A DNA stretch of 63,116 nucleotides, counting the filler, from Craspedostauros australis (Eukaryota): the NCBI GenBank assembly GCA_030167865.1. It is 10 parts of 10 records of this genome, joined end to end, with 100 filler letters (N's around TTAATTAATTAA, not from the genome) between each part and the next. Parts side by side here need not be neighbours in the genome. Positions count along the whole stretch, not along the records: positions 49,242 to 56,508 come from JALAGF010000360.1; 9 more parts are not named here. One strand, 5' to 3'. Shown in pieces: positions 8,560-63,116 of the stretch (its first letter is position 1; every line of letters begins with the position of its first letter). The translations under genes and the position numbers were made by a program. The notes beneath the pieces are model-generated. The model was given only the letters and a program-made list of their open reading frames with translations. It made no database searches and had not been told where the DNA came from.

Positions 8560-11500
8560 ATGCCGACAGATCCACGCAAGAAGGCAGCCGCTGCTCGGCA
8601 GCAGTTGCAGCAGCAGATTCCCAGGCATGCGAGCACCAATGTCGCCGTCAAGCAGGAAGCGCACGTTCCGCCACCACCGCCCGCTGCGGCCATCAAATCG
8701 GATCCCGGCCTCCAAGATCAGCAGCAGCGGACGCCGATCCTGTTTGCAGGCCAAGATGCGATGGAAGAAGATGAGGATGTGGACATGCCGTTGCAGCCGA
8801 TGGCATCCGCGGCCACCGCAATGAAGGATGAGTACCAGCAGCAAGCGCCATTGGCAGCAGCTTCAGCGGTCGGAGATGCTGCCTCGTCTGCGCAAGCTTC
8901 GGCGTACGACCACATACCCGCCGCACCACCAGCTGCCGGCATCCATGGAAACGGCATCATCAATGCCCATGCAAACGCCCATGCAAACGCCGCAGGACGC
9001 AGCACCGACCTCATCCCCAACATCATCACTCCCTCCCCATTCCCGCATCACGAGACAGGCCCGACATCCTCCCGCTTCCGCAATGCCATGAGCCGCATCC
9101 AGGACAGCCCCCTCACGGACGTCGAAGCCTGGCAAGCGCTCATGTCGGAGGTCAACGCCTGCTACCGCACCGTCAAATCATCCATGGAATTGCACTCGCA
9201 GTCGGTCGAGACGCACCAGAAGTTGGATTGGATGGAGAGCTGCTACGGAACCCTCTTCCGTTACTTCCCTTACGCATCGCATTACTATGTCACCATCGCG
9301 GAGATGCTGCTGGCACAGAGCGCGCGCGTGGGGGAAGAGGACGGCCCGGTCAGCGATTACGGATTCGGCGTCTCGCAACGATCGTTGCTGTGTCAGGCCA
9401 AGCTCGAGCGGCTCTTTCAAAAGGTGCTCGGCGTTCACATGGATGGATCACCGGCTGCCGAGTCACCGCCACTGGCGTACAATGACAAAGTCACGATTGT
9501 CGCGACCTCCAACTCCATTCCAGCAGGGGCCGCTGCGACTGCAACCAATGGTGAAAATCAACAACAGCAGCAACAGCAACAACAACAACAGCAGGACGAG
9601 GAGGAACAGGAAGCACAGACCAATGAGAATGCGATGATTGGCGGGATGTGCACTTCGTCTGCAGAACTGTGGTTGCTCTTCGTTAAAACGAGAATGCGCG
9701 AGGCACAGCGACAGGCAAGGAACATGAACCCCACCGATGGCACCGAATTCGTCCGCAAATGGGCCATGGCCGCGTACGAAACCGCGGTCACGCATGCTGC
9801 GTTCGGCGTCAACAACAACCTCGTGTGGAAGGCCTACGTGGCGTACGTCCGGACCTGGGTGGTGCCACCGCCACCCGCAATGCCCGGAGGTCCACCGCCA
9901 CCACCGATCGACAGAGCCCTGCAGCAACGGCAGGAGACGCAGCTGCGCGCCATCTATCAACGTCTCGTCACGCATCCCATGACCGGCCTCGATGCCATCT
10001 GGCAGGAGTACGAAATGTTCGAACGCAAGCTCAGCGAGCAGCTGGCGCAGGCGTTGATCGGGGAATTCACACCCAAGTACCAGCACGCGCGCAGCGTCTA
10101 CCTCGAACGCGATCGATTGTATCCCAAGCAAAGCCTGCAGATGGACCGCTTGGCCACGACGCCCGCCAACGCCGACGAGGAGGACTACTCCTCCAAGCTG
10201 CAGGAGGAGCACAAATTCTTCAAGGTGTGGAAGACCAGAGTGGCCTACGAACGCACGAATCCAGAACGCTTGACGAACACCAAGGAAGCTGCCAGACGCA
10301 TCCGGCAAGTCTACAAGGAGATGGCCTGCGTGCTCACAAGGCACGCCGAGGTCTGGCACATGTGGGCCATGTGGGAGCTGCATTCGAGCAAGGGGGAAGG
10401 CAAGGAGATCGAGCGCGCCCAGCGGGCCCTCAAGGTCCTTGACTTGGCGCTGGAGCAGATACCGGACAGCGTGCTGCTGGGGTACACGCAGGCACAGATT
10501 GTGGAATCCTTCACGGGACGCGCTGCAGATTCCGTCCACGTCATGCAGTACTTTGTCAATCGCATCCCGAACACCCTGGGGTATGTCCTGTACCAGCAGC
10601 TGATGCGGCGTCACAAGGGCATCAAAGAGGCAAGGGCGGTGTTTGCCAAAGCCCGACGCGTGTTGGTGCACAAGGAACCGGCAGAGCCATCGGCTAGCAC
10701 CGCAGAAGCGGGCGCATCAGCGACAGAGGGTGGACAAAAAGATCAGTCCGAAACTGCGGATGGCAGCAGCTCCGAACTGGACAAGGCACGGCGCATGGTC
10801 ACCAATCGGCTAGATCCTGCAGTTGGAACAGCAGCGAGCACACCGCTCGAGTCCGCCGTCGGCAGCACCATGGATGCAGCGAGCCCGGCAGCAAAAGTCA
10901 AGCCGGGACGCATCACGTGGCAACTATACGCATCTCACGCAACGATCGAACATCGCCTCAACCGCGAACCGGAAATCGCGGCGCGGGTGTATGAGCTAGG
11001 TTTGCGCAAGCACGCCTCGTTCCTCACCAAACCAGCCTACGTCATGAAATATGCCCAGCTGCTGTTGGAACTGCACGACTCAGTCAATCTCCGCGCGCTG
11101 CTCACCCGGGCGGTGTCCGCATGCAGCAACCGAGCCAAGTCGTCCTCGTCTGATGTCGCTGCCTTTTGGGACATGACCTTGCGATTCGAATCTTTGTTGA
11201 GCGGCGCAGATCCCACGAATATGGCATCCTTCCACACCATCGAACGCAGACGCCGCGAAGCGTTGATGGGTCCCGATATCGAGGACGTCGCCACCGGTGG
11301 TCTCGTGGGTGCATCCGATGCGCCTGTGATCGGTTCGCAACGCACGACCCTGGCGGAGCATCTGGTGCGTGCGGATGGCTACGACGTCAATTCCAACATC
11401 GTCAGCGGAATGAGCCGTCTGGTGGACGTCCTCGGCGTGATGGGACTTTGGGGTGACACGGGAGGTATCGGCGGCGGTGGCTCCGCGACGGCCAGCTCCA

Positions 11501-12039
11501 CCCTGCGACGCCAGCTGGGGATGGTGATGGACATCGAACCGGATGATGAATTCCCCGGCGGCAAGAGCGACGCGGCATACCAGAGACGATACCAATACTC
11601 GAACCTCATGGCGGCAGGCATCTCCCACGCCGCAGCGTTCGAAGACCCGAACGCTGCCAGCGCTTCCGGTGCAACCAGCAACAGCCGGTTGGTTGCCCGA
11701 TCACAGCAAAACACCGCCATGGCCATGGCCATCCAGCAGATGCCGGATTGGCTGCGCCCCTTGCTCTCCCTGCTGCCAGCGTCTCGCTCCCGCTCCGCTG
11801 TCGTCGGCAAACCGCCCGGGCACATGATCGAGAGAGCCCTCGGCTCGTTGCGACGAAACAACCTCCCGTCCGAACGTCCCATCCCCAAGACGAAAAAGTC
11901 TCAAACCGTCGGTAACAAACATCGGCTGGATCAAGGTGGGGATTCTTCCGACGATGACGACGATGCGGGCAATCGCAACACTGGGTACAGCTCTCAATTC
12001 CGCGCCAGGCAACATGCCAGGCAGCAAACCATGATGTGA
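8560..12039 (+). CDS. CSTF3: Cleavage stimulation factor 77 kDa subunit / RNA14-like (HAT repeats, Suf domain)
   Basis: 1159-aa ORF with HAT-like segments: IYQRLVTHPMTGLDAIWQEYEMFERKL, WKTRVAYERTNP, RRHKGIKEARAVFAKAR, IAARVYELGLRKH; polyQ and low-complexity inserts. Confidence 0.85.
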   Translation: MPTDPRKKAAAARQQLQQQIPRHASTNVAVKQEAHVPPPPPAAAIKSDPGLQDQQQRTPILFAGQDAMEEDEDVDMPLQPMASAATAMKDEYQQQAPLAAASAVGDAASSAQASAYDHIPAAPPAAGIHGNGIINAHANAHANAAGRSTDLIPNIITPSPFPHHETGPTSSRFRNAMSRIQDSPLTDVEAWQALMSEVNACYRTVKSSMELHSQSVETHQKLDWMESCYGTLFRYFPYASHYYVTIAEMLLAQSARVGEEDGPVSDYGFGVSQRSLLCQAKLERLFQKVLGVHMDGSPAAESPPLAYNDKVTIVATSNSIPAGAAATATNGENQQQQQQQQQQQQDEEEQEAQTNENAMIGGMCTSSAELWLLFVKTRMREAQRQARNMNPTDGTEFVRKWAMAAYETAVTHAAFGVNNNLVWKAYVAYVRTWVVPPPPAMPGGPPPPPIDRALQQRQETQLRAIYQRLVTHPMTGLDAIWQEYEMFERKLSEQLAQALIGEFTPKYQHARSVYLERDRLYPKQSLQMDRLATTPANADEEDYSSKLQEEHKFFKVWKTRVAYERTNPERLTNTKEAARRIRQVYKEMACVLTRHAEVWHMWAMWELHSSKGEGKEIERAQRALKVLDLALEQIPDSVLLGYTQAQIVESFTGRAADSVHVMQYFVNRIPNTLGYVLYQQLMRRHKGIKEARAVFAKARRVLVHKEPAEPSASTAEAGASATEGGQKDQSETADGSSSELDKARRMVTNRLDPAVGTAASTPLESAVGSTMDAASPAAKVKPGRITWQLYASHATIEHRLNREPEIAARVYELGLRKHASFLTKPAYVMKYAQLLLELHDSVNLRALLTRAVSACSNRAKSSSSDVAAFWDMTLRFESLLSGADPTNMASFHTIERRRREALMGPDIEDVATGGLVGASDAPVIGSQRTTLAEHLVRADGYDVNSNIVSGMSRLVDVLGVMGLWGDTGGIGGGGSATASSTLRRQLGMVMDIEPDDEFPGGKSDAAYQRRYQYSNLMAAGISHAAAFEDPNAASASGATSNSRLVARSQQNTAMAMAIQQMPDWLRPLLSLLPASRSRSAVVGKPPGHMIERALGSLRRNNLPSERPIPKTKKSQTVGNKHRLDQGGDSSDDDDDAGNRNTGYSSQFRARQHARQQTMM

Positions 12040-12992
12040 TCGAGTTCTCGCAGAACGTTGGTCGTTTGGGTTGGAATACAAGGATCATAGTACTCTAGAG
12101 AGAGTAGTATAGATACCAACGGACTTTTGTTCTGATGTTGCCTACTCCGATTATGTAATACAATATGTGGACACGAGTAAGCGCGCATAGTCTTCGAACA
12201 GATTAGGCTTTGGTGAAGATGGGTCATTCTCATTGCTGGGAGGGGTTCGTTCTGTGTGCAGGAATGGCGACGCGGCGAACTCAACAACTGTCAACTTCCC
12301 GGCGTCCATGCAGGGAAGAGATCTTATCAGCAGTGCATCATTTTCACCGAAGTGGCCTCGACAGGCAGATCCGCCACAATGGGGAAACACCTGAAACTTA
12401 CCGGCCACCAACACCGCCAACAAGCTAACTCGTAACACGTTGAGTAAAAGGGGTCCCAGTTGAAGAGGGCTCAAGGGGTTATGGATTCGCGAAATAGAAC
12501 AGGTCGTCGCCAGTTCATGAGAGAGGATCAAGTGTCACTTCCTTGTGTCCACACACAACGTGAACTGGTTCCGAGGCGGCTTCCTCGGCACGCTATTTTA
12601 CGTACCATGGAGATGCTCTTCCAGTAGAGGACCCCATTCCGCGATCGGCCGTTGGTGCTTTCCTTCCCACCACCTGAGCACGACACCATCACCTCGCAGA
12701 TGGAAGTAAGGACGGAAGGAAGGAGATGGAAGAAGAGACTTGGTCAAACAAATGTATCGCGCGACACTCTCTGCCAACAACGCGCATCCCTGAATGCTCT
12801 CGTTAGGAATCGCCGACTACCATGAAGCCGCTTTCAACGCATCACGACCGCACATCTTTGCAAATCGGCGCCCATAGAGCACTTCATGATACAATAATAG
12901 TCTCAACAGCATCGTCTCATAAATATTGAGCACCGAGGATACGACTTCCAACATAAATACTCCAAGCACCGCCTTGTCAACTTACAGCAACC

Positions 12993-15900
12993 ATGATGAT
13001 CAAGCCCAGGGTGCTCTTCACTGTTGGACTTCTCCTTGTCTCCGTGGAGACGGCCACCGCAATGCTACGAGGCACCAGGAATGCGGCGGCGGCTGCGACC
13101 ACTGCAGTCGATGAATTGCACATCACCATGCGAAGCATCCGCATGCTCAAGGCCACGTATAGTGACGATCCCAATACTGATATCATCGACAATGATGTCA
13201 AGACGTCCAAGCAGACGAAGACCAATGCCTTGGAACCAGAATCGGAACCAAGTTCGGAAGCAAGCGAACCTCCGTCTTTCATTGTATCAACTTCCCCAAC
13301 CTCACCGCCGACCACTCAGCCAACGCATTCTCCCACAACTGGACCGACGAGCCTACCAACTAGTATGCCAACCTCCGAGCCAACTCTCAATCCAGCAGCC
13401 AATCCAACTGCATTCGATTCAGATGTGGCCGTCACCTGCAAGCCTGACGGTAACACTGTTCTCACACAAGAAGAGAGCCGCATCAAGACCATCGCATGCA
13501 ACGCAGCCAAGGCATCGTGCCAAGCTGCTGTCCTTGCCGTGAAGAGATCGCCGGAATTGCAGAACTATTTTGGCTGCGCAGGGAACCTCAGTGAAGGAGC
13601 AGCACGCAAACTTTTCAACAGGTACGCATCGGATAGCACGCTGGCTGCGCAACTCACATTGGTGGCCAACGGTGGGGCAATTCTAGTCACGGAGAGGCAA
13701 GACGTGATCAAGGCGGCCTGCATGGCAATCGGTATGGCCCAGTCACCACCCAACACCAATCCATGCTGCCAAGGAATATCTGGGTGCATCTCGACGACCG
13801 ATCCTGCTTCTGCTGCAACACCGTTCATGACTGTTGCCGTCAGCGCATGCACTGGTGATAGCGCGTGCAAAAACATCGGGCCTAATCCCCTCATCTTGGA
13901 TTCTTCATGCACTGGCGTGAGTGCATGCGAATCCATGAACGAGAACGATCCCGATCCTACCACTGCAGGAATCACCTTCGTTGGTGAAGTCTCATGTACG
14001 AGCGCACTATCCTGCGAGGCAGTCGGATATCGATCCTACGGAGACGTGACCATCCACAATAGCGCATGCACCGGACCAGAAGCGTGCGGTTCAGTTGGGC
14101 ACCGTGTTCCGCAATCAGCGCCATTCTTTCGATTTCGAAGTCATATCGATATTGGGTCGAATGCTTGCGTCGGGAGTCGTGCCTGCAAGGATGCCCATTC
14201 CACTGTGAATCGTGGCTCTGCCGGGAAGCTTTCAGGAAGCTTGACGATTAGCGATGGTGGCTGTGATGGCGAGGGCGCGTGCGAGAAGATGGGCTTCACT
14301 GACAGGATGCGAACGGACATCAATGTTCCTCCTGGTGGATGCAACGGGGTTGACAGGTGCAGGGGATGCATGACGAAGACCGAATGTGGAACTGATGAGG
14401 TGTACATCATTAGTGATGCCAATGGAGCCTGTCCAAAGGGAGGCGTTGAGACCAACTACAACCCAACAGGAGAGAAGGTGGACGAGTATTGTGTTGGCAA
14501 GGCCACCTTGCCCACAGACTGTCCGACCTTCTTCCCGACGCCTCTTCCCACTGTGACGCGCCGGCCCACATCTGCCCCGACCAAATCTTTCGAACCTTCC
14601 TCCATTCCTACCATATCTTCCGAGCCTTCGTTCACTCCGACCATATCCACTGAACCTTCAACTACGCCCACTGCCTCCTCTGAACCTTCATCAACTCCTT
14701 CCATATCCTCTGGACCTTCCTCCAGTCCTACAGTTTCCTCAGAACCTTCGTCCGCTCCAACGATCTCTCTGCAGCCTTCGTCTCTCCCGACCATATCTTC
14801 TGAACCTTCCTCCATTCCTACCATATCCTCTGGCCCTTCCTTCAGTCCTACAGTTTCTTCACAACCTTCATCTACTCCAACCCTTTCTTTGGGACCGTCA
14901 TCCGCTCCAACCGTATCTTCTGAACCTTCATTCGCCCCCACCATATCCTCCGAACCTTCATCGGTTCCTTCCACTGCTCCAACCGTTTTCGCTGGCATAG
15001 GGTGTCTTCAAATTCCAGGCAATGTGACCTCAATGTTCAATCCGGCTGCTGGTGACATCCTTTGTGATAGTGATACGGGCACATGCACAGACTTCGTGGC
15101 TGCAGTGGATGCCCTGTCAGACAACAAAGGGTTGATGATCAAGAGCATTTTTGCATGCGACGATTCGGTGCCTCCAGGGGTTGTGTCACAGGCGGTGGCC
15201 CAGGCACGCTTTGACAAAGTCAAGGATGATGCGGATGTGACAGCGGCCATATTGGAGACAGTGGCAACCAAGAACCTATTCACTGGCAGTGGAGCTGCTG
15301 TAACAGACGCATGTGGTGATGACTGCTGTGTGGGATCTAACGCTTGCTCGACCAGCCCTTCCGCTGGTGTGATGACAGTGAGTGAGGCGTCGTGCGATGG
15401 CGATGAGGCTTGCCTGGACGTGTTCCCTGACACCATCATCCTCAACAGTTGTAATGGAGACCTTGCTTGCAGGATATTTGGCCAGTTCACCTCAACGCAA
15501 CCGAACGCGGCTGTTAAGGTTGGATATAGGGTGATTGGACCAGGTTCATGCAACGAAGGTTCAGGTTGCGGAAGGGCCGTGCGGAACATCTTTGGCAATG
15601 TGAGAGTACAGACAGGGTCTTGCAGCGACGTTAATGCATGTTTGGACCTTGGAGTCCGCGAATCCCAAGGAGATACCACATCACCAGTCGTCGCCAACAT
15701 CTTCATTGGCAAGAATGCATGCACAGGACGCCAAGGTTGCAATGCGGTACATGCAGGAACTGGAAAGGCGCGAGGAAGCTTGACAATCGAAAATGGTGCA
15801 TGTATTGGAGACGCCGCGTGCACAAGTGCAGCCTTCAAGAATGCAGCAATCAATGACCTTGTCATCAAAGCAGGAGTTTGCGATGCCAGTGAAGCCAGCA

Positions 15901-19296: not shown

Positions 19297-19396
19297 NNNN
19301 NNNNNNNNNNNNNNNNNNNNNNNNNNNNNNNNNNNNNNNNTTAATTAATTAANNNNNNNNNNNNNNNNNNNNNNNNNNNNNNNNNNNNNNNNNNNN
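19297..19396. other. Artificial contig linker N44-TTAATTAATTAA-N44 (also at 20462-20561, 28418-28517, 34256-34355, 35538-35637, 49142-49241, 56509-56608, 58202-58301, 59401-59500)
   Basis: Nine identical 100-nt spacers with stop codons in all six frames. Confidence 0.98.
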
Positions 19397-28517: not shown

Positions 28518-28783
28518 GAACACGGAGTATCGTGTGCGACGAGTACATGATGTTGAGAGAGAGAGGGAGAGAATACAGAGAAGAGCGAGAGAGCATCTCG
28601 CGTACCGACTCATAGTCGGAGACTGAATCTACGAAACAGATTGAAGCGCCNNNNNNNNNNNNNNNNNNNNNNNNNNNNNNNNNNNNNNNNNNNNNNNNNN
28701 NAGTAATGAAATAGCAAACGAACGACTATCAACCAACACCATCTTCCACGATCGTAGGTTACCGTGCGCGGAACTTGCCAACA
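28518..28783. mobile_element. LTR family A, partial copy (ends ...TTGCCAACA)
   Basis: High identity to 60091-60352; similarity stops exactly at CA. The 51-N gap matches the 51 nt at 60220-60270. Confidence 0.8.
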
Positions 28784-30464: not shown

Positions 30465-31151
30465 AGTAAGGATTCGGGCTTAGTCGACGCGAATCGGTGG
30501 AGGATGCCTCGTAAATCTGCCAGCTTCGAGATAGCCGTGTGATGCAGTTTAAGAGAGGTGCACTGGTTGAAGAGTTGTTACTGTAACAATGAGTAGAAGA
30601 GTGCTTTGTAGCTAATCCTTGTCTGTTTATTCTGAGTTAGCTTGTGGTGTTAGTAGGGTGAAGAAACGATGTCACACAGCTTGATGGGACCCTGCACTGA
30701 TGTACTTGGTTCAGTGCGTGAGGGTAGGCGATTATTGCAGTTCCTTGCTCTCCTCACACGTAGATACACTGCAGTGTAGATCATGACACTCAATAGTGAC
30801 AGTCATGAAGCAATGACTGTGGCTGGAGTTGACTCTCAGATTCCATTGCTTGAGTTGAAGCAGGCTGGATACACATGTCAAGACTACAGCAGTAGTGCAG
30901 TAGTCATTGGCATGGAGGGAATGGAGGTATGTTGTAGTGAAAGGATCTGAGGAGCATATAGTTCGCAAGGTGAGATGTGAGTCAGGTTGGTCATGTTTGA
31001 GTCATGAAGGATTCGTGAATGGAGGAGAAAAAGGAGGAAAAAAGATTTGGTGGTCGATCAAGTCAGAAGATTTCGTGCCAAAACAAGAATTTCTCCCATC
31101 GGAGGTGGATACTGTGTCCGGTATTAGTCTGTCCCTCATTGAATCTCAACT
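30465..31151. mobile_element. LTR-like repeat family B (AGT...ACT termini), copy 1
   Basis: Colinear with 53804-54488 over its full length; ends AGTAAGGATTC / GAATCTCAACT are imperfect inverted repeats. Confidence 0.82.
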
Positions 31152-44420: not shown

Positions 44421-45758
44421 CTAGTTGACCAACCCCAAGACCTCATCGACGACCGACAGGGTGCTCTCGGATGTGGTGCTCGTGGTGGCCTTGTGCGGAC
44501 TACTCGTGTCATGCGACGGCGATGATGATGCGCAGCGCCGCATGATGGAATGGCATTTCTGATCCAGCGACAGCTTGGAGCTGAACTGTTTCGTTGCCGC
44601 CAACAGAGTGACGCTGGTGGGAGAACAGTACGATGGCACTGTGGGTTGCGGTTGCTTCTTCATATTGAGGAAGAGTGGTGATGAGACCGGTTCTGTTGGC
44701 GGCGCGCTGCGGATGATATCGATCATCTCACTGGCATCCAAGGACTGGTTCTCTTCGCTCGACATGCTGCTGTGAGCCGTCGTGTGTGACGACGTGCCGC
44801 TGAGATCGGCATCGAGATCCACCTGGACAACGGACCGCGCGCGCGATGGTGGCAGCGGACAATGTTCGCGTTGTTGCAGGCGCTTCATCATGTGACGGCG
44901 GTGGTAGGAGGTCGGGCTCGTTGGTGCGGCCGGAAATACGGCATTTTGCTTCGACGATGATTGCTTCTGGGATGCCAGGTATCGCGGCGGGATTCCGTCC
45001 TGCGGTGTGGAGTCTTTGCGCCGCGGTTTGAGCGGGATCATATCGCCCCTGCTGCCGGCACGGGGCAGCCCGCTGACGGCGGCGTTCGTGGCGAAGGTCT
45101 GGGCGGACGAATTGCGCGACGAGGCCAGCGAACCGAGGTTGCGTCTGGACGATAGGCGGCGTGCCGGTCTGGCGGTGCGTGGCGTAGAAGTGTCGCTGAC
45201 GCTGTCGCCATCGAGGAGGATCTCGCTGCAGTCATCGGCGCTGCGGGCCCTCTGCAGGCGCACGCACCGACGTGTGGGGCTCATGAGTATCTGATCGGCC
45301 TGGTTGGAGGAGTCGAGCACGTTCCATCTGGAGGTGGGCAGCAGCGGTGTGGTGGTGCCGAGAGACTTGGATCGGCGCTGCGAGAGATTGGGCAGGGATG
45401 TGGACTCGCGGACCTTGTGCTTGCACTGTCTCTGTTGCGGAAGCTGTTGCTGGTGATGGCGTTGATGCGATGTGTTGTTGCTGATGAGGGCGTCACATCC
45501 ATCGGACATGTCGTCGAGGGTGATGCTGCTGGTGCTGCTGTCATCTCCATCGTTGTTGTTGTTGTTCATCATGTTGTTGTCGCAGTTGAGGAAGGAGGCG
45601 CTGTTGTTGACATCATTGTTGACATCATTGTTGACATCATTGTTCACATCATTGCTGGAGATGGTTGGGATGAAGATGAAATTGAACGGCAGAAGCTTGT
45701 CTCCGTTTCTGCCCATGCAGCCGACCTGGATGCCGTTCGTGTTGTAGCTGTCGATCAT
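44421..45758 (-). CDS. Hypothetical low-complexity Ser/Arg/Asn-rich protein
   Basis: 445-aa ORF with coding-like GC content and no recognisable domain. Confidence 0.6.
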   Translation of the reverse strand: MIDSYNTNGIQVGCMGRNGDKLLPFNFIFIPTISSNDVNNDVNNDVNNDVNNSASFLNCDNNMMNNNNNDGDDSSTSSITLDDMSDGCDALISNNTSHQRHHQQQLPQQRQCKHKVRESTSLPNLSQRRSKSLGTTTPLLPTSRWNVLDSSNQADQILMSPTRRCVRLQRARSADDCSEILLDGDSVSDTSTPRTARPARRLSSRRNLGSLASSRNSSAQTFATNAAVSGLPRAGSRGDMIPLKPRRKDSTPQDGIPPRYLASQKQSSSKQNAVFPAAPTSPTSYHRRHMMKRLQQREHCPLPPSRARSVVQVDLDADLSGTSSHTTAHSSMSSEENQSLDASEMIDIIRSAPPTEPVSSPLFLNMKKQPQPTVPSYCSPTSVTLLAATKQFSSKLSLDQKCHSIMRRCASSSPSHDTSSPHKATTSTTSESTLSVVDEVLGLVN

Positions 45759-48929: not shown

Positions 48930-50274
48930 AAACCAAAAATAACACGACGTTTCCTCGCGATGGGAAAAGTGGTCGACCAGTTGGACTAAAACTAGAATTG
49001 GACGCTCGTCTCGTCGTACATTTTCTTCGTGTATTTTCTTCGTACTTTTTGTTGTTATCCACGTTTTCACGTAGTTATGGCAGAGTTTCGGACACTCGCC
49101 AGGTGTTGTTGTTGTTTGCATTGCATATGAAGGTGCTTGCTNNNNNNNNNNNNNNNNNNNNNNNNNNNNNNNNNNNNNNNNNNNNTTAATTAATTAANNN
49201 NNNNNNNNNNNNNNNNNNNNNNNNNNNNNNNNNNNNNNNNNGAATACATATGAAGTCCCAATGGCTGACAAGGTGGATCCTGACAAGGTTCCAAAGCCTC
49301 CACCCCCACTGCCAATGTTGCTGTCACCTGGGACTCGCGATGAAGTGCTGAAGCAATGGCACGCAATCTCAGTGTTTGTTGGAAATCCGGGGTTATAGTG
49401 GTAGACTAATCTGTTATCAGTCTGTACCGTTTTAGAACTGTGAGCACAACATGCTCATCTCCTTTCGATTCCAATTCACAACAAGCNTGATNTGCAGCNG
49501 CCACCCAAGGTTACNCCCTTTAGCTTGGCTCCTTTCGTCTGCATCTCCATCTTGCGTTCATCNTGGTTCATCGCTTGCTTAGCTGAGAGTTGGAGAGTAC
49601 CTACATTCGTCAAGTTCATACTCGTAGACCTGTAGGTACCTCTCCTTTGGTCTCCTGTCACTTCACTGGTCCCACTTCATTTCAGTTCCTCCCTCCGGTC
49701 ATCTCGATGGTTGCCTTTGGATGTTTGGAACTTATTGTCATTTGGATCGTGGTCTTGGGTGAATAGGAATCGCCTCTGTTTCGCTTTCCCACATTAGGTT
49801 CTCAGGGACGCGTCGACTTGTTCAGATATATTGGTTGTCGCGCTCATTCGATTCACTCAGGGCTGGTGTGTTGCCATCNNNNNNNNNNNNNNNNNNNNNN
49901 NNNNNNNNNNNNNNNNNNNNNNNNNNNNNNNNNNNNNNNNNNNNTTGGATGTCGCATAAGACAGGTAAGGCCATTGGGCTGTCCGAGTGCAACTGGTCGA
50001 TTGCTAGGTTGCGGTTTGTCTGGGAGATGCTATTGGGGGTTGCGGCAATCATGGGTATCTTTGCACTTAATACCATTCCGGTTCCAGTCAGTCCTCATGG
50101 GAGCTGCGGTAGAATAGGGTATCTTTGCAAAGTCGTACCCCCGATTCCTGACAAGCGGGGAACAACAGAACGGGTATCTTTGACGAAGATCGCAGCGAAG
50201 GATTAGTAGAAGAAGATCGATTCAATCCAAATGAAGAGGTTGTCTATCCATACGACATTGCATTCGCGCCAATC

Positions 50275-53200
50275 ATGGAATTCACCAGACAGGGCATCAA
50301 CTTCAGAAACGATGCGATTCCACGACCAACGGCAACTGCGGAGATCATGCAACGACAGCTCATCCATGACGCTGTATTGACGGCAGGCATGCGCTTATAC
50401 CCAGACGATGACGACGCAGGAGAGCGACACCTGTGGGTGTGCACGACAGCAACCACGCTGTGCGAGAACTTCTGGTCCATCGAAGAGATTCTCGCCAATG
50501 GATCGGTCATCAACCAATTGTTGGGGGAATACAACAACAATCCAATGCCCAACATGGCGTTGCACTACATCCTGGGAGGATGCATGCATGTGCTCCTGCG
50601 CGAGCGACCACGCGTCACGCCGTACGATCCGGTGACTGGACTTCATCAAGACAGCACGCCCCCCAGCTGTACCCGCAGAACCGTACTACGACAGCATGAC
50701 CTACCACAGACTGGACGACAGGAACGACGATCCCAGCGACGATGACTATGAAGACGACATGACAGCAGCTGCCATGGAACAGCTCCACGAGCTGAACACC
50801 AAGCGCAAGGACAAGGTCAACAAGGACACCTGGCTTGCCAACAGCAGAGCTTTGTGTCACATTGTCAATTCGGACGCCGCCCTCTTCAACATGCGGCACA
50901 TCAAGCCCTTCGTCCAAGTGGGAGACAGCATGAAGCTGGATTCTCCCAAGATGGGATCCATTTGCTTGAAGGTCAAGCAACGAGACAACACTGGCCACAT
51001 CATCTGGCTTGATGATGTGAAGTACACACCCAAGATGGTGGTGAACCTTTTCTCAACGAACAAGGCTCTGTACAACGGTTACCAGCTTGGTAACAACGGC
51101 ATTCTGATGGACATCATCAACGGATCCGGAATGAAGATCATGTTCGATCGAGTCTTCCCCACATCCAACGGATTCATCACGGGAGTGCAGATGCATCCCA
51201 TCATGCCAACTGAGGATAGCAAGGCTTCCACAGCCATCATCAATAATTCATCCAAGGAGACCAGCGCGGTGAACCTGCACCAAATGCTCGGCCACGCGCC
51301 ACTTGAAACCATGAAGCGGACGGCCGCTCAGTACGGATGGAAGATCATCGGCGAGATGCAGGTATGTCGCGACTGCGCGGTCGCGAACGCAAGAGTGAAG
51401 AACATCTCGAAGGCGACGATCCCAAGAGCAACTCGTCGCGGAGAACGTCTCTTCATTGACATTAGTTACACTAAACACATAAGCTTCGGAGATAAACGCT
51501 ACTGGACCCTGATCGTGGACGACTGCACGGATCACTGCTGGAGTTTCTTTCTCAAGAACAAAAGTGACCAACCAGGGTACATCAAACGATTCGTCCAGAC
51601 GATCAAGTCACAGACTGGTGATCAACAAATCATCTTCTGAGGAGACAACAGTGGAGAGAACAAATCCACGCAGGATATTCTCATCGATGCATGACTGAAC
51701 GTGAAATTTGAATTCACGGCATCGAACACGCCGCAACAGAACGGGAGAGTGGAACGCAAGTTCGTGTACCTCTACACCAAGATCCGCTCCATGCTCAATG
51801 GAGCACAGCTCGACGAAGAGTATAGGCATGGCCTGTGGGCAGCAGCTGCGAGCACTACCACCGCCAACATCACCGTAGCGAAGAATCAGAAAGAGTCACC
51901 ACATCGCCAATTCTTCGGCAGCGATCCACCATACGCGGATGCACTCCGCACATTCGGAGAGGTGGGTGTTGTGAAGACTACCTATGACAGAATCACCGCC
52001 AAACTCAAGAATAGAGGAGAAGAGATGGTGTTCATTGGATATGCACACCAACATGCATCAGGAGTATACAGCATGTACAGACCATCAACCAAATCACTGG
52101 TCTGCTCTCGTGACATCAAATGGCTCAACCAATCATACGGACAGTTCCGTGGCTGGGCGCCAGCACCGAACATATCCAACGAAGTGGGAACAACAAACGT
52201 AGACGGCTTCACAACCATTGGATGGAAGGGAGCAATGCCAAGGATGACAATGCGTCGAACATCAGAAGCGAAGAGAGTATCTTTTGCTGACACGAACAAG
52301 TATCACATTCTATCAGACAGCAATGATGAGGATGATGAAGATGATGGAGTAGTAACTCAACAAATCAATGATGACAATGAAGATCGGAGCGAATCCAATC
52401 ATGAGGATGACAAGATCCTACCATCCGGTGACGAAGCCGACGATGATACAGGTGTTACCCCTCCGAACACACCAGCGAGGTCTACACATGACACACCATC
52501 CAGACCTCCACCAAGCAAACCAACCAAGCGTGACGTAGCTAGAAAGGAGAGAATCCGACGTCACAAAGCACGAGGCAGGAAGGGAGACAATCATCGCAAG
52601 TCCACTACAGGGAAGAGTATTCCCAGAGCTCTGCATGAGCTTGCAGACTTCAACGAACGAGGTCGAAAGGAGGAAGGTTACGAGAGCGAGTCATCACCCA
52701 ACGAAGAGAGTGACGAACTCAGCAACGAAATAACCGACGAATCCAACAACGAAACCACAGATGACGAGGAAATTGTAGACGGAGAAGATGAGATCGAAAT
52801 CACTCATCATAGCACAACAGGACTATACAGGATGAATGCAATCATCACCGAGATACCAGCGATCGACATCGGATTGTCGATGCAGGACGAGAACAAGGAA
52901 CCAGAGAAGCACATCGAACCAACAACATTCGATGGAGCCTTCAATCACCCCAGATCCCATCCATCGAAAGGGATATCGAGCAGCCATCAAGAAGGAGTTC
53001 AACTCCATGGATACACGCAAGGTGTATAGCAAGATCAAACGAGATGCCATCCCACGCGGCCGTAGATGCTGCAAATGCAAATGGGTCTTCAAGCTGAAAC
53101 GCGACGGCACACATCGAGCACGGCTCGTTGCATGTGGCTATTCACAAGTCACAGGAGTAGACTTCCAAGAGCATTACTCACCTGTCATCCATGACGTGAC

Positions 53201-53803
53201 CTACCAAGTCATGATGGTGATCATGCTGATCAAGAAGATGGACTGCACACTCGTCGATGTCGTAACGGCATTCCTACATGGAGACCTCGACGAGGAGATC
53301 TACATGAACTGTCCCAACGGGATGGATCATCAAGCAGACGAAGCCCTGACCCTACACAAGCCAATCTACGGACTTGTACAGAGCGCCAGATATGGTTCAA
53401 GATGTTGGTATCGACCCTCAAGAATATCAACTTTGAACAGAGCGCAGCAGACCCGTGCCTGTTCTACAGGAAGACGAACGAAGGAGGCATGATTGTGGCC
53501 ATCTACATGGACGATTGCTTCTGCTGCGGAGACTCCAAGGCATTGGAGACCTTCCTGAAGGACATCCAAGGCAGCAAGTTCAAGGTGACAATTGAACGAG
53601 GACTTGGAGATTACCTCAGCTGCAACATTGAACTGAACCACGACAAGGCAAGAGCAACGCTACGCCAACCGCATCTCATCTGACATCTCATCAAAGAGTT
53701 CGGATCCAAGGTTGAGAAGATGCAACGTTGTGCAACGCTGGGAACCCTGGGTCAAATCATTGTACGACCATCCGAAGAGAACGGACTACAGAAGGTTGGA
53801 GCG
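50275..53803 (+). mobile_element. Decayed Ty1/copia polyprotein (protease, integrase, RT), truncated by LTR family B
   Basis: Degenerate protease WLANSRALCH, HHCC zinc finger (HQMLGH...CRDC), integrase RLFIDIS / TPQQNGRVER, RT CKWVFKLK, RARLVACGYSQ, DVVTAFLHGDL, IYMDD; order PR-IN-RT; stops and frameshifts. Confidence 0.93.
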
Positions 53804-54488
53804 AGTTAGGATTCGGGCGTAGACGGTGCGAATTGGTGGAGGATGCCTCTTGGATCTGCCGGCTTCAAGATAGCCGTGTGATGCAGTTCAAGAGAGGTGT
53901 ACTGTTTGAATAGTTGTTGCTGTAATGATGAGTAGAAGAGTGCTTTTAGCTAATCCTTGTCTGTTTGTTATGAGTTTGCTTGTAGTGTTAGTAGGGTGAA
54001 GAAACAATGCCACACAACTTGGCGAGACCCTGCACTGATGTACTTGGTTCAGTGCTTGAGGGTAGACGATCATTACAGTGCCTTGCTCTCCATACATGTA
54101 GATACACTGCAGTGTAGGTCATGACACCTGATAGTGACGGTCATGAAGCAGTGGCTGTGGCTGGAGCTGACCTTCGGATTCCATTGCTTGAGTTGAAGTT
54201 GGTTTGATACACGTGTCAAGACCATGGCAGTGGTGCAGTAGTCGTCAGCATGGAGGGAATCAAGGTATGTTGTAGTAAAGAGGATCTGAGGAGCATATAG
54301 TTCCCAAGGTGAGGTGTGAGTCAGGTTGGTCATGTTTGAGTCATGATGGATTTGTGAATGGAGGAGAGAAAGGAGGAGAGAAGATTTGGTGGTCAATCAA
54401 GTCAAAGGATTTCGCGCCAAAACAAGAATTTCTCCCATCAGGTTGATACTGTGTCCAGTAATAGTCTGTCCCTCATTGAATCTCAACT
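53804..54488. mobile_element. LTR-like repeat family B (AGT...ACT termini), copy 2
   Basis: Colinear with 30465-31151; begins AGTTAGGATTC and ends GAATCTCAACT. Confidence 0.82.
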
Positions 54489-55550
54489 ATCAGTATGTGT
54501 TCATGCGACAAGGAGCAGCTTGAGTTGTTTTGTGTTGTGCGCCTTCCTTGGTTCCTTCGCAAACATGTCACAATGAACAAAATGCAGGGTCGGAAACATC
54601 ATTCGCGCATCAGCAAAAGAACAAAGGAAGAGTACAGGGTAGTACCTCGTACTCTCACAGGTTTGCATTCTGCCAAGGCGAGAATTGTTTGTTTTGGCGT
54701 TGTGTGTGCCCAAGGAGGCTGGAGAGGCCTCGCGAGCTGGGCTCTGGTCTTGCAACGATGGCACCTTTCTCGAAGAGAGTGCTCTGCCGCGGAGCAGAGT
54801 AGAGCCGAGTGCTTGCCCTACTTCATTTGTAGTTTGTAGCTCGTGCGAGCTATCCTTGTGCAAGAGGGGGAGCCAAAAATTGGTTCTGAGGCATTGCAGC
54901 GTACGCAAGAAGAGCGAGCTTGGAGCGCGCGCACAGCAGAGCAAGAGCTGGTGGGAGACTTACACGAGAGTGCGGCGATTGATTTCCGTGAAGTTGTGTG
55001 ATGATTTGTATTATATCACAGTGTGCCTTGCTGTGAAACTTCGCCTGCGTGGCTCAACGATGGCAGAATGTTCATGTTCTTTGCTGTTGGAGGCTTCCTC
55101 CTTGATCTTATGGCAAGGGAATGAGAATTCGAATGCTCTTCCCAGAGACGGGGAATCATCCCGGCCCGGTTGCTGGCCGCGACGATTGGCGGAGACGAAA
55201 TGAGTGGAGCGGTTCATCGGCGTCCACCCTTTGTGCCGATTCCGCCCTTGCTTTTCCTTCGCGGAGGGGAACAGACTCCCTGAGATTCGGAGGAACATGC
55301 CGGCTCCCTGACACCCCCGACGGACAACGATCCCATGCGGTAAGCAGCTTCCACGTCCCTTCCTCGCACACTCGTCCATCCTCGCACCCATGACGGACGC
55401 ATGACTCCATGACAGTGGCCACAAGAGAGGACGAGCACACATGCGCTCTTGTACGGGTACACGGACGACCTACTCGCACAAGTTTCCTGCTCCTTTGGGG
55501 TGCTGTTTCTTGCCTCGCTGTGGCCGCGGAAGTTGCCTTGAGGACGGATC

Positions 55551-55831
55551 TGTTGGTGCATCAGGCCAAATTGTGAGAGGCGAAGGCACGAAACCGCCAA
55601 TGACCCGTGACGTCACCCAACGGTGCGAAACAACAGCAGGCAGCCACCACCAGCACCATGCAAGCAAACCCAAGGAAAACAACAGAGACAGCAACAGCAA
55701 CAGCAAAACAGACATAAAACCAATTCAAAGTATCTGATTATACACACCCACACCAATCTCACTGTACNACATCTGGATTGACCTTCGGTTGATAGCCGGG
55801 TAGCATCCGGTGTTGAGCAGTTGCCTCAACA
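55551..55831 (+). mobile_element. Putative 5' LTR (TGTTG...CAACA) of a diatom Copia-like element
   Basis: TG...CA ends with a 5-bp terminal inverted repeat, directly upstream of gag. The left boundary is inferred because no second LTR is in the window. Confidence 0.6.
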
Positions 55832-55863
55832 TACTTTGAATTGGTTTGCGCTTCGTCGTCACG

Positions 55864-56508
55864 ATGAGCACAGACACAAAGGTCAAGCCGACGAAGCCGA
55901 AGGGCGAAGGAGGCAAGACAAACAACAACAACAACAACAAAAATCGATCGCCGTTCGTCAAGGCGGTCAAGTTCGAAGGAGCATGCACCGACCTAAAGGG
56001 CATGGTGTTTGACTGTGTGACATCACGCACCAAACAAGCCGAGGACTTCAAACAGACGCTGGAGGCCGTCAAGGTCTACGCCGGCACCACCTACGGTCCA
56101 CGAGTCGCACACGCCGTCGAGTCGCTCACCACACCAGTCATCGACGAGCCAGAGGACTACCCTGATGACGCCACCCCCATCATGAAGAAGAAATGGGAGA
56201 AGAAGTACAGCAAGTATGAAGACAGGGTGGAACGGATGAACGAGGACATGCAAAAGCTGTACTCTGTCGTATGGGGCCAATGCTCGGACTCCATGCGGGC
56301 CTGAATACAGGAGACCAACGGGTACGAGGAGATCAAGGAAGAAATGGATGTGATCGAGCTGATCAAGCTGATCAAGAACATCACTTTCAACTACAACACG
56401 CACAAACACCCCATCGTCGCCTCCCACGAAATGCAGAAAGCATACTTCACCATCAAGCAAGGAAAGCGACAGAGCGTGCAGGATTACCATGAGGCGTTCA
56501 CCGCCATC
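55864..56508 (+). pseudogene. Retrotransposon gag (diatom CoDi-like), one in-frame TGA at 56302-56304, cut by a gap
   Basis: KFEGACTDLKGMVFD...LYSVVWGQCSDSM...DVIELIKLIK...KQGKRQSVQDYHEAF resembles diatom copia gag. Confidence 0.75.
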
Positions 56509-58301
56509 NNNNNNNNNNNNNNNNNNNNNNNNNNNNNNNNNNNNNNNNNNNNTTAATTAATTAANNNNNNNNNNNNNNNNNNNNNNNNNNNNNNNNNNNN
56601 NNNNNNNNGCAAGGCAAGACCTGCCAACATGATCCATTCCCACTGAATGGTTCATGTGGAATGAATGCAGCAGTACGAAAACACCGGTGGCACATAGTTT
56701 TGGAATACAGTCTATATGGTACAACAATAACAGAAAAATATCTGTACACAGCATGCATGGGGAGGAAGAGAGAAGCAACTTGCATTGTTCGTATGGTAGG
56801 CTGGACCACTATTAGTTGTTACAGGGTGGTGGTAAAGTGTGGATGCAAGTTATGGACGAAGTTGCAATGGAGGATGGGCTTGTTCTCCCAAACCCAAAGC
56901 AAGTCACAAATACACGAGGAAAGCAACAGCAGAACCTGTGAAATGGCTGATTCCAACGAAGACCAAGAAAATGTGGAAAATAGCAACAATGGACCCACTT
57001 TCTATTCTTTCTGAGTCGCATTTACAAAAAAACGCCGTTTTCCCTTCCCCTCCGCAGCATGAGGTTCGTCGAAGACTGCTTAAATCTCGTACCACTAGTA
57101 CGGCTGCGTTGGTATCACCGAATTAAATCTGTGCGTCCGTGTGGATTGGCGCTGCTGTTGGATACCACAACACGACAAATTCTCCGACACCCGCAGTTCC
57201 CAAAAGGACTGCTGAAAGGCCCTATGCTGGCTTTCCGCCGTTAGTTGTTGCGAGATGGCGTAATACAACGAGTCGCGAACGATCAGTTGTGACTGGCTGA
57301 AAACGCGGGACGAGATTGGCACGCGCCGTGGTTTGGAAACCAAGAATGATTGTGTCGCATGTCATCGCAATCATCATAATTGTTGTGATGGAAGGCGGCA
57401 AGGAAATGTCACAGGACGCTTAATGAAAATGGTATCATCGAAGCATCAGTCACTCCCACCGCGACACCACGAAACCCGTTGTTTTCTCATTCACAGTTGT
57501 TCGGCGATACCAGTCATAGCGTGGAGGTTGAGTCGTGACGAGATCCATGGATGTTGATCACGATTTGACTCGGTCGTATGAATCGAACGTCCTGGTGTTG
57601 TTGTTGACTTGTCTGTTTGAAATTGTAAGTCAGTACACATATGTCTGTTTGAAGTAAAACCGGGTCACTTCTGGACATAATTGACTGGTTGATACAGCCG
57701 ACCCATACGACTCCAGGGCACCATCCGAAGGAAGACGGGAACGCAACGGAAATGAAAGGCACGCACACGACTCCGCAACGGAAACCCGAACCAAAGGTTT
57801 AACGGCCACACATGGGCCAAATACCTAAGTAAGAGTAATTCAAACGAGGTGCGACAACGGCCAATTGATGATAACGCGGAGCTCACAAAATGAGCAACTG
57901 CGACAACAAAAATCGAACAACAAAAATCGGGAACGCAAAACGCACCATCTTGGGTCGCGTCGCAAGGCCATCAAAAGGAGCACGACCTGAGAGCAACGCC
58001 CGGCCAAGACCCGATTCAACAATGAGAAACGAAGAGGATCTAACACGAGAGATAGAGGAACCTGCAAGAGAAAGAGAGCAGAAGAGAGAATAAACAACAA
58101 GCAGAGAAGCGATGGAACAGCAGCAATCGAAGCACCCACAATTTGGAAAAGACAACAGAATTGTCAACTCCCCGCTTCGATTAACGCTTCCTGCAACGCT
58201 TNNNNNNNNNNNNNNNNNNNNNNNNNNNNNNNNNNNNNNNNNNNNTTAATTAATTAANNNNNNNNNNNNNNNNNNNNNNNNNNNNNNNNNNNNNNNNNNN
58301 N

Positions 58302-59398: not shown

Positions 59399-59500
59399 GT
59401 NNNNNNNNNNNNNNNNNNNNNNNNNNNNNNNNNNNNNNNNNNNNTTAATTAATTAANNNNNNNNNNNNNNNNNNNNNNNNNNNNNNNNNNNNNNNNNNNN

Positions 59501-60352
59501 GAAGTCGTACCTTGACACATCGAGAACATTCGAATGACCGAATGCACACAGGAAGGGTGTCGAGATGTACATGTGAGTATATGTTGAGATGTACGAGTAT
59601 ATGTGCATCATTCACCCGTTTTTCTCTCATACGCACTTAGACGGTATAACTACAATCGTGTAGATAGTATGCTGTGATTCGTCAGAATTACAGTGGAAAT
59701 GGAACACACGAAAATGAGCAAGATTTCTGGAGGAAATTTGCAATCGACGATTTCTGAGAGAATTAGAANATCGTCCGTCCATCCATCAATGGTACCAAGA
59801 GAATCTCAAGGTACTTCCCAACTAAACCTCAGATGACGATATCATCTGACAGACTGCTGCATCACCAATGGAATGTGACATCTGGAGAGCAGAAGGACGC
59901 CTACTGACGTTGACAGGATGTCATTGTGTCACCATGTCGACATCTGTCTCCAAGTCAGAGCAGGAGGCAAAGATCTGATGACCAAAGGGCATCAAGATCA
60001 TGGATACGGGAGGTGAAGTTCAAATGGTAAGTACTCATGGAGTAGGAGCCAGTAAGGAACAAACGGAGTGTTGAATGCGGAGTATGCATTGAACACGGAG
60101 TATCGTGTAGCACGAGCACACGATGTTGAGAGAGAGAGAGAATACAGAGAGGAGCAAGAGAGCATCTTGCGTACCGACTCATAGTCGGAGACTGAATCTA
60201 CGAAACAGATTGAAGCACCGAGAGCATCGGGCAAGAGAATTGGTATACACCAAGAGGATCGGAGTAACCAAGTAATGAAATAGCAAACGAACGACTATCA
60301 ACCAACACCATCTTCCACGATCGTAGGTTACCGTGAGCGGAACTTGCCAACA
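59501..60352. mobile_element. LTR family A, longer copy (ends ...TTGCCAACA)
   Basis: 60091-60352 matches 28518-28783; upstream non-coding sequence runs to the contig edge, so the left extent is inferred. Confidence 0.7.
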
Positions 60353-60661: not shown

Positions 60662-62086
60662 TCACGCAAATCCGCAACAACTCTTCCAGTTGTTGATCTC
60701 AGTCGTCACAGCCTTCAACAGTTCCTTCATGGGCACGCAAAGCTTCCCCTTACGCGCCTCCAAACTAACGATATGTACACTTTCCGCAGGGGTCTCTGCC
60801 TCTATGTCCACCCCAAGGTACACATGCGAATGATTGATGCCTGAAAGACTCGAAAGCGTCCCGAAGAAATTTGGAATACCATATCCACGTGGGAATATCT
60901 CAATCAGCGATCCGCATCGTGGCATCAGGAACAAGCCAGCACACTGGGCACCGTGAGGTGTGACCAAGATATCGACATTCGCAAATGCCTCTGCTTGCTG
61001 CTCGAATGATGCCCGCTCGAAGAATATCACCGGTGGCTGGTACGTCAGATCGAAGTGTTCCTTCAGAAGTGTAGATACGATTGTCGCATTTATAAGTCTT
61101 CGATGCCTCTTTCGACTGAGGATCACGATACGTGGCTGTAGATCTGTCGCCAGGAGTGAGAGCTGGGCTCTCTTTGATTGCGTTGAATTTGCGTTTGTGT
61201 AGGCATCGAGATCGTCGACAATCAGGGCCTTCGAACAGGAGGTGGCAGGGGCTGCGTAGCCCAGAATGGAGTCTATGACTTTTTGTTTGAAGTGCTGCAT
61301 ATCGTTCGTGTTGGCCATCCTGTAATGGTCGAGGTTCGATGTTCCGGAAAGTAGTAGTTTTGATTGATCAGATGGATAGTCCCTGACGAAATCTTGGGGC
61401 CCACTGTGGATGATTGTGATGTTGTTTTGGTGCAGCATGTGGATGATCGCTCTGTTGAAGGCCGAGTTCTTCCGCATTTGGCTGAATCGGTACTCACCAA
61501 CCATCATGATGTGGGTTGCATTTGGAAAGTGGTTCCACAACGACCAGCACTGGAGGATATGCTGCATGGAATGGGGGAAATGATTGGCGACTTTGTGCTG
61601 CTTGAGACTGCATACCACTGTGTCAAACTTCATGCTTGGAGGTGCCTCGCTGGACGCCCAGACTTCTCGGAAGTCACCGTGCATTTGTGTGATGAATTCA
61701 GTTGGAGGGTAGGATTTGGGGAAGTTGCTGACCTCAAAGAATCCTGGTAGAGATGGGTCCGTCACATCGCAAGTACGTTTGTTTAGGTGAGAGGGTTCCA
61801 CGAATATGGTCTCTGGTGTCATGAGATCTGGGAATGATGTGATGGGATGCGAGATGGAATCCGGCTGCGTAGTTAAAGCGCGTGGATCTGGTCCTGCAAA
61901 TCCAATATCGAAGAGCACCTGTTGTGTATGTGTACTCGTCGTGGAGTAGATGCGACTGCTTTGCCAGATAGTATTCAAAGTCATCAACCCCGCCACTGTC
62001 ATGGTTGCGATGATGGCCTGCTTTATGTTTCGCTTCCTTCCGACGGTTGTGACGATCACATGCTTTGCGCGTCGCTTCCTTGCCAT
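60662..62086 (-). CDS. Glycosyltransferase family 61-like, type II membrane
   Basis: N-terminal TM; NHFPH, PRIVILSR...RRL, SFEQQ...DILVTPHGAQ...LIEIFP. Confidence 0.85.
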   Translation of the reverse strand: MARKRRAKHVIVTTVGRKRNIKQAIIATMTVAGLMTLNTIWQSSRIYSTTSTHTQQVLFDIGFAGPDPRALTTQPDSISHPITSFPDLMTPETIFVEPSHLNKRTCDVTDPSLPGFFEVSNFPKSYPPTEFITQMHGDFREVWASSEAPPSMKFDTVVCSLKQHKVANHFPHSMQHILQCWSLWNHFPNATHIMMVGEYRFSQMRKNSAFNRAIIHMLHQNNITIIHSGPQDFVRDYPSDQSKLLLSGTSNLDHYRMANTNDMQHFKQKVIDSILGYAAPATSCSKALIVDDLDAYTNANSTQSKRAQLSLLATDLQPRIVILSRKRHRRLINATIVSTLLKEHFDLTYQPPVIFFERASFEQQAEAFANVDILVTPHGAQCAGLFLMPRCGSLIEIFPRGYGIPNFFGTLSSLSGINHSHVYLGVDIEAETPAESVHIVSLEARKGKLCVPMKELLKAVTTEINNWKSCCGFA

Positions 62087-63116
62087 GGTGAGGGTGCGAA
62101 TGCTTTCAGCACAAAGAGACGAGACGAGCGAGGTTGGAGCAGACTTGTGAACGCATGCGCTCCGTTGGCTTTGTGGTTGAGGGTGTTGTCATCGAAGCGA
62201 GCAGTTTTTCTGCTGTTTTACGGTGTTTGTGGCGATGTCCGTGTGTTGTGTTGCCACACCAGTCGTGAAGATAGTGGGTACATGGTTCGCCGTGTTGGCC
62301 TGTTTTTGGGTATGGTGGTCATCTTGGCATTTCCTGCACAGATTTGTTCCATTGATGTGCTGCGCGACAATTGGATGTTCGGAGGAGGTATTACCAAACC
62401 AAGATACCTGTGAAACCGTTTAATTGGCGTTGAGCGTGAACACAAGTGTCAACCAATCAGATAGCAGCAGCAGCGTAGCCGAGCGCACGTGTTGCACTCA
62501 GTAAGACTCAGAATCTGCGTTCTTACGCTATTACAACTCATTTTGGGTTTCATGCGTGCAATAACTTGGTTCGTCGCCCTGTCCGAGGAAGTGACAACGT
62601 GCCAGGCTTCCTGGGCGAAGGGGGCCAACTTAAATTGCCGCGGCTCCCAAACACCGAACGGGAAGCCAACGAACTGCGGGCCGCCAAGGTGTCACAAACT
62701 CGAACGAACGAAGGAGTACGAACGGAGGAGTATTGGATCTGGCGTCGTGTTTGTGTATCGAATGGATGGCTCGAAACTTTTACAAGCGGAACGGAAGAGA
62801 ACGGTATGTTTGAAGTTCAGACATCAAGATGGGACGGATGGATCAGGTCGCCAAACAGCAAGCCAGTCAGCCAACCAGTCAGAGTCATCCATTCACCAAG
62901 TCGCTGATGGGGCTTGGGTAATGGCGACAGTAGAGGGATATCGCATTTCACATTCACACCCCTCCATTCATGTCACATGTGGCACTCACGTTCGGATTTC
63001 ACATTGGTACTCGTGACTCGTTCGTGACCTAAACAGAAAGACGACCAATATGACTGAATCGGCTTCTCTTCTGTAGAATATAGTTCGAGTTTAGACTGAT
63101 ATGATCTGAATGCTTC

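Follow-up and report, generated by a model that had tools for sequence, protein, structure and literature searches.

To our knowledge, self-priming of reverse transcription has been established experimentally for the long terminal repeat (LTR) retrotransposon Tf1 only and inferred for a few other groups, including Tf1/sushi. In Tf1, the RNA's first 11 bases are described as pairing with the primer binding site (PBS), and an RNase H cut between bases 11 and 12 makes the primer (PMC7175516, available text). For the TAR lineage of plant Ty1/copia elements (Houba, Osr-1) self-priming is likewise a prediction, and the self-primer criterion that Neumann et al. apply requires 10 bp or more of the 5′ LTR to complement a region that begins 0–5 bp past the LTR (PMC6317226, available text). 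Here we follow up a sequence-only reading of one locus in a 63,116-nt stretch of Craspedostauros australis DNA (the window, to which all coordinates refer). In our judgement, the element found there is likely to be one of a large and probably diatom clade whose minus-strand DNA synthesis is primed, in a Tf1-like manner, by the element's own RNA and not by a tRNA.

The locus is built around two segments on the plus strand, AAACCAATTCAAAGTAT (55717–55733) and ATACTTTGAATTGGTTT (55831–55847), which are perfect reverse complements of 17 nt with 97 nt between them. A pattern search tolerating up to three mismatches recovered the 17-nt pair and one unrelated three-mismatch site, a yield equalled in none of 100 shuffles. 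Throughout the 63-kb window there are two perfect inverted repeats of at least 12 nt with a gap of 60–170 nt, and the 17-nt pair alone exceeds 12 nt; the longest inverted repeat in 30 mononucleotide shuffles of the window was 13 nt. A 12-nt repeat at 44596/44692 was rejected as G+C-rich, devoid of the YCA- and CAACA-type motifs described below and of a length that shuffles also reach. We take 55717–55733 as the 5′ arm, which would serve as self-primer and lie at the start of R or close to it, and 55831–55847 as the 3′ arm, a putative PBS that starts at the terminal A of the LTR. The plus-strand interval between them (55734–55830) would form the 97-nt R-U5 interior, which in relatives measures 86–123 nt. 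When 55717–55847 was folded with ViennaRNA, the prediction was a 17-bp closing stem around three small local hairpins, among them TGTTGAG/CTCAACA (−41 kcal/mol); a single N, at 55768, lies in the loop between the arms.

The sequence-only reading had claimed the perfect 17-nt complement, which the repeat and pattern searches and the shuffles bear out, and a local hairpin at the LTR end, which is present as described: TGTTGAG (55811–55817), a 7-nt loop and CTCAACA (55825–55831), spanning 55811–55831. It had further placed the start of gag 17 nt past the stem, and we find the gag ATG at 55864, with 16 nt intervening between stem end and ATG. Its remark that the candidate PBS does not start with TGG is correct for the window and extends to the relatives, whose PBS blocks are likewise never TGG-led. 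A search of Rfam with 55400–56000 returned nothing at E ≤ 1, and an exact search of viral contigs with the 23-mer covering the window's LTR end and PBS gave 0 matches.

What survives in the window is probably the 5′ end of a Copia-type LTR retrotransposon, a fragment that is likely dead and was cut short by the assembly. The probable 5′ LTR occupies 55551–55831 (281 bp, plus strand). It closes with CTCAACA, an end supported by analogy with relatives in which the paired LTRs finish in ...CAACA, and its start is one that we infer: we put it at the TGTTGG at 55551 because the LTRs of relatives begin with TGTTGAG or TGTTGG. This start places the 5′ arm 166 nt into the LTR, compared with 161–163 nt in three relatives (L055, L051 and L079), and another TGTTGG near 55085 is an alternative candidate. 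As regards the TG...CA termini of an LTR, the CA end alone is seen in the window, at 55830–55831. Neither a second LTR copy nor a 3′ LTR is present in the window, and its self-comparison finds no repeat of 54489–55863; the limits of the LTR are therefore not readable from the window and rest on analogy. Downstream, translation of 55864–56508 (plus strand) gives the N-terminal 215 codons of gag, interrupted by an in-frame TGA at 56302–56304 and ended by a scaffold gap at 56509–56608, where N runs surrounding a TTAATTAATTAA linker terminate the element copy. Searches with tblastn using two long full-length relatives identified this gag fragment as the family's sole piece in the window, together with a weak reverse transcriptase (RT) match to a different element upstream.

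Several other features of the window deserve record. A second, degenerate Copia element lies upstream at 50150–54488 (plus strand), where Pol_BBD, SH3_retrovirus and RVT_2 occupy shifted frames; no gag, 5′ LTR or PBS belonging to it was located in the window, which has gaps at 49142–49944. The last 685 bp of this element (53804–54488) recur at 30465–31151 with 88% identity, and both copies finish in ...GAATCTCAAC, which resembles the LTR ends of the putatively self-priming clade. Fourteen scaffold joins consist of 44 N, TTAATTAATTAA and another 44 N (for example 19297–19396, 49142–49241, 56509–56608, 58202–58301 and 59401–59500); the window is thus a chain of short contigs, and features that span joins are untrustworthy. 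Neighbouring the element, at 60665–62188 on the minus strand, is an intact 508-aa ORF with a Glyco_transf_61 match (E 2e-13), a GT61 gene whose nearest Atlas clusters come from Chlorophyta, Bacillariophyta and Oomycota. Self-comparison of the window also revealed a dispersed 266-bp repeat (28518–28783 versus 60091–60352, 76% identity) and an internally repetitive stretch at 14576–14973.

The gag fragment connects the window copy to a large family. Searched as a query (215 residues, with X at the stop) against 1.84 billion representatives, it retrieved 2347 relatives at E ≤ 0.001, with 43% identity in the best case. One relative of 1681 aa (P0066) carries a window-type gag at its N terminus, together with a CCHC knuckle (residue 364) and an RVT_2 domain (1140–1364, E 9e-16), and in the locus L055 an RVT_2 match (11025–12068, E 2e-21) sits near the 3′ end of a 5.5-kb element. 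The zf-CCHC domain was found in P0066, P0103, P0014, L001 and L044; the window gag ends before that position. Residues 585–800 of the L001 gag-pol ORF, between protease and RT, are predicted to adopt a retroviral integrase-like fold comprising the N-terminal domain and the catalytic core. This model, built from an 8-sequence alignment with a mean pLDDT of 67.6, retrieved integrases from the PDB with Foldseek (E 1e-5, probability 1.00), and in P0066 the block homologous to L001 585–800 aligns ahead of RVT_2. By sequence, no integrase was detected in relatives with Pfam (E ≤ 1), NCBIfam, a PDB sequence search or motif regexes, nor by BLASTP and hhalign against the window's other Copia element. 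The RVT_2 matches and the predicted integrase fold ahead of RT in relatives therefore give the clade a Copia-type RT and Copia gene order. The PR-IN-RT order that the sequence-only reading had looked to thus finds agreement in relatives, the window copy itself ending inside gag. As to the host, the Atlas clusters nearest the gag part of P0066 are eukaryotic and, where a phylum is labelled, Bacillariophyta (1–2 members each); on these taxon labels, assignment of the clade to diatoms is plausible but weakly supported.

An alignment of 27 gag sequences, used to scan metagenome contigs, retrieved 79 loci, several of which proved on self-comparison to carry true LTR pairs or long direct repeats. 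In L044, L055, L051 and L079 the LTRs start with TGTTGAG or TGTTGG and finish in ...CAACA, and the flanks past the 5′ and 3′ LTR ends differ at once. In all eight elements with a definable LTR end (the window, L044, L055, L051, L079, L052, L065 and L037), a block of 12–17 nt at that end has a perfect complement inside the LTR. The block begins at offsets of −2 to +3 from the LTR end (offset 0 for the 17 nt of the window), 97–121 nt separate the arms, and the arm sequences differ between families. The earlier placement of the LTR end at ...CAACA, beside the complementary block, thereby holds in seven related loci with paired or directly repeated LTRs. Five of these loci (L044, L051, L052, L065 and L079) carry the 5′ arm in each of their two LTRs and have a single 3′ arm, which follows the 5′ LTR only; in L055 an exact 12-mer of the 5′ arm is present in the 5′ LTR only.

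The same arrangement emerged from a systematic scan of 80 sources, the 79 loci plus the window, from which 11 without an ATG call and 10 with less than 200 nt upstream were dropped. Among the 59 evaluated, a perfect repeat of at least 10 nt with a gap of 86–129 nt was found in 49 and one of at least 12 nt in 46; in dinucleotide shuffles of the scanned regions, these lengths were reached in 29 and 1 of 1180, respectively. Widening the region and allowing one mismatch or G-U brought out a 15–19-nt pair in seven of the ten misses (L007, L020, L037, L039, L041, L042 and L045), and no pair even under these settings in L038, L050 and L069. The arms are sharply bounded, at 12–18 nt with a median of 15: the 4+4 positions flanking them pair at a low level and without structure (53 Watson-Crick, 11 G-U and 192 mismatches, n = 256). 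From stem end to gag ATG the distance is 1–27 nt in many relatives. Sequences past the 3′ arm differ between families, and no other conserved block that is PBS-like or led by TGG occurs there.

From the 49 loci with perfect repeats we aligned 32 non-redundant segments (below 85% mutual similarity). Run on these, RNAalifold predicted the long-range 14-bp stem alone, with compensatory changes at all 14 pairs, and pair counting found 93.2% of stem cells paired, a percentage that, like the near absence of G-U in the arms, is partly a matter of construction because the segments were chosen for a perfect Watson-Crick repeat. This selection does not touch the dinucleotide-shuffle test or the sequence differences between families. 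An inner R-U5 hairpin of the CUGUUG..CACAG type, added by eye, was 83.5% paired with changes on both sides at 8 of 8 pairs. It occupies alignment columns 101–135 (CUGUUGyy-UUAUAG-rCACAG type), and at approximately 55778–55802 the window has ATTGACC-TTC-GGTTGAT. When stem and inner hairpin were counted jointly, the observed values were reached in 0 of 500 shuffles, and slid controls gave 35–45%. Covariation of the arms across related families, to which the sequence-only reading had also looked, is accordingly present, every one of the stem pairs changing on both sides. By eye, CTGGTTTAC...GATAAAGCC, located after the 5′ arm in relatives, looks like a second covarying hairpin.

A covariance model built without the window found the motif in 61 of the 79 loci at E ≤ 0.01 (65 matches), always on the gag strand. 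Applied to the window under default filters, it gave no match; a run over 5 kb with the filters off had its best match in register (55721–55843) at 14.2 bits and E = 0.31. This weak score marks the window R-U5 as a sequence outlier, and its membership therefore rests on gag homology and the shared layout.

Two landmarks flank the duplex across the 32 elements. The first base of the 3′ arm coincides with the terminal A of the CAACA-type LTR end in 24 elements, and the arm begins one base past this A in six and three bases past it in two. At the start of the 5′ arm, 29 of the 32 carry a YCA trinucleotide, which ends at −1 (24), 0 (4) or +2 (1); the exceptions are L001, L065 and the window, where the bases before the arm are GACATA and YCA has not been preserved. 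In oomycetes the initiator reads YCAYTYY, with transcription usually starting at the A, and it is apparently the sole such motif present in the diatom Thalassiosira pseudonana (PMC3599244, available text). The position of YCA and its likeness to the oomycete initiator suggest that transcription starts at that A, which would place the arm at or beside the RNA 5′ end. One contig, L008 (5260 nt), begins at the first base of its 5′ arm and finishes at the last base of its 3′ arm, with a 123-nt terminal repeat (1–123 and 5138–5260) that equals the entire stem-loop. It is the sole contig to behave in this way; an assembly effect and a real molecule end are both possible. None of the loci includes a poly(A)-ended contig.

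Complementarity, its fixed position at the LTR end, covariation in relatives and Copia-type gene order in relatives are what we observed. The layout is the same as that of Tf1, and we therefore rate Tf1-like self-priming as the best reading; the sequence-only interpretation of a self-priming Copia element is supported by the LTR-end position, the covariation and the Copia order in relatives, and we regard it as probably correct. Under this reading, transcription would begin inside the LTR, at the 5′ arm or immediately ahead of it. The ~15 nt at or just past the RNA 5′ end (17 in the window copy) would fold back over ~100 nt of R-U5 and pair with a site whose first position is the final LTR base. 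RNase H of the element would then cut the duplex at its inner end, on the assumption, taken from Tf1, that the clade's enzyme cleaves RNA-RNA duplexes, and the freed 3′-OH would be extended through U5 and R, as in Tf1. Plus-strand synthesis would copy the primer, and the PBS would be rewritten from the 5′ arm in each cycle; such rewriting would explain why the arms stay perfectly complementary yet drift between lineages.

A pairing this well conserved could serve other ends. We consider it rather unlikely that the long-range stem has been conserved as an RNA structure for some other role, for instance in packaging, dimerisation, leader circularisation or control of gag translation, with a different primer in use. 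Covariation proves pairing, not priming; in many relatives the stem lies 1–27 nt ahead of the gag ATG and could affect translation; and the second covarying inner hairpin shows that the leader is structured generally. Against this reading, the 3′ arm sits exactly at the required PBS position, beginning with the final base of the LTR in 24 of 32 elements; no other conserved PBS-like block follows it; and the duplex has a fixed, primer-like length with sharp ends. The same pairing might instead be made in trans, the primer being the 5′ end of the co-packaged RNA, the copy of R found at the 3′ end of the RNA, or some short RNA derived from the LTR. With the 5′ arm in both LTRs, every transcript has the sequence twice, and cis and trans pairing are inseparable by sequence alone; yet the spacing, constant at 86–129 nt, and the conserved hairpin within R-U5 suggest a fold inside one molecule, and Tf1 is described as using the RNA 5′ end (PMC7175516, available text), and we hold a primer in trans to be quite improbable.

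Priming by a host tRNA, through its 3′ end or as a tRNA half, would make the LTR complementarity incidental; one candidate site is TGGTTTGCGC at 55842, and half-tRNA priming is known in Copia lineages (PMC6317226, available text). Searches of the window and of 16 loci out of the 79, for the most part the longest ones, brought up no tRNA genes. The PBS blocks nevertheless vary between families, are A+T-rich and are never led by TGG, and recurrence in 49 of 59 loci is not something that an incidental repeat would show. For its sequence to be the complement of TGGTTTGCGCTTCG, a tRNA would moreover have to begin with UU, which is unusual. Altogether, we see very little likelihood of tRNA priming here. 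A chance repeat or an assembly artefact might be entertained for a fragmented scaffold with a single N at 55768 in the loop, but 17 nt was never reached by shuffles and the same architecture recurs in independent metagenome contigs; this explanation is effectively refuted by the shuffle tests, pair counting and scan.

Returning to Tf1-like self-priming, we also advance a wider proposal, more tentatively and with slightly less confidence than doubt. It holds that a widespread protist (probably diatom) Copia clade gave up tRNA priming for a ~15-nt self-primer whose first base comes next to an initiator-type start, one position downstream, and that this change arose separately from Tf1/sushi and from the plant TAR lineage. 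Because the PBS would be rewritten from the primer in each cycle, each lineage would come to own a drifting primer/PBS 'barcode'. If this is true, the clade offers a natural system for the evolution of primer choice, and the loss of tRNA priming would appear as a repeated event. LTR annotation tools keyed to tRNA-type PBSs would gain a rule for diatoms: a YCA start, an arm of ~15 nt, then CAACA followed by the complement. Because the sequence itself gives the primer, the PBS and the likely start site, the clade would furthermore make a simple test system.

Among known systems, Tf1 and Tf2 of Schizosaccharomyces pombe and the Tf1/sushi group of Ty3/gypsy chromoviruses are likewise without a tRNA-type PBS, and RNase H is described as making their primer (PMC7175516, available text). 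In contrast to Tf1/sushi elements, the RT of the window clade is of the RVT_2 Copia type and, in relatives, follows a predicted integrase-fold domain; a gypsy-type RT with integrase behind it is not what the relatives have. The duplex is 12–18 nt in the window clade, compared with 11 in Tf1, and ~100 nt lie between the clade's arms. The clade is thus like Tf1 in layout without being a member of the Tf1 group, and is known here through its sequence.

Within Copia, the fungal GalEa elements also lack a tRNA-type PBS and have a conserved structure, the Conserved Hairpin Site, at the PBS position (PMC5445492, available text). That structure is a short local palindrome for which the available text reports no LTR complement found by the authors, whereas the partner in the window clade lies ~100–120 nt upstream, inside the LTR (PMC5445492). 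The CoDi groups (Maumus et al. 2009) are diatom Copia-type elements, and the Bacillariophyta labels on the gag-like Atlas clusters nearest to a relative of the window gag are a weak hint in their direction. A term search of the CoDi paper's main text (PMC2806351) turned up no mention of tRNA, priming or PPT, and 'PBS' for the buffer only. A full-text literature search, whose coverage leaves most subscription journals outside, returned no paper tying self-priming to diatom or CoDi Copia elements.

TAR is a parallel both in superfamily and in prediction. Both it and the window clade are Copia elements predicted to self-prime, and the window copy falls within the criterion of Neumann et al. (PMC6317226, available text); the host of TAR is a land plant, whereas that of the window clade is a protist, probably a diatom. 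The sequence-only reading had called the strategy convergent. The word needs qualifying because the plant TAR lineage of Ty1/copia had already been predicted to self-prime (PMC6317226, available text). Self-priming in Copia is itself already a prediction in plants, and the window clade, as read from its sequence features, is a further predicted case.
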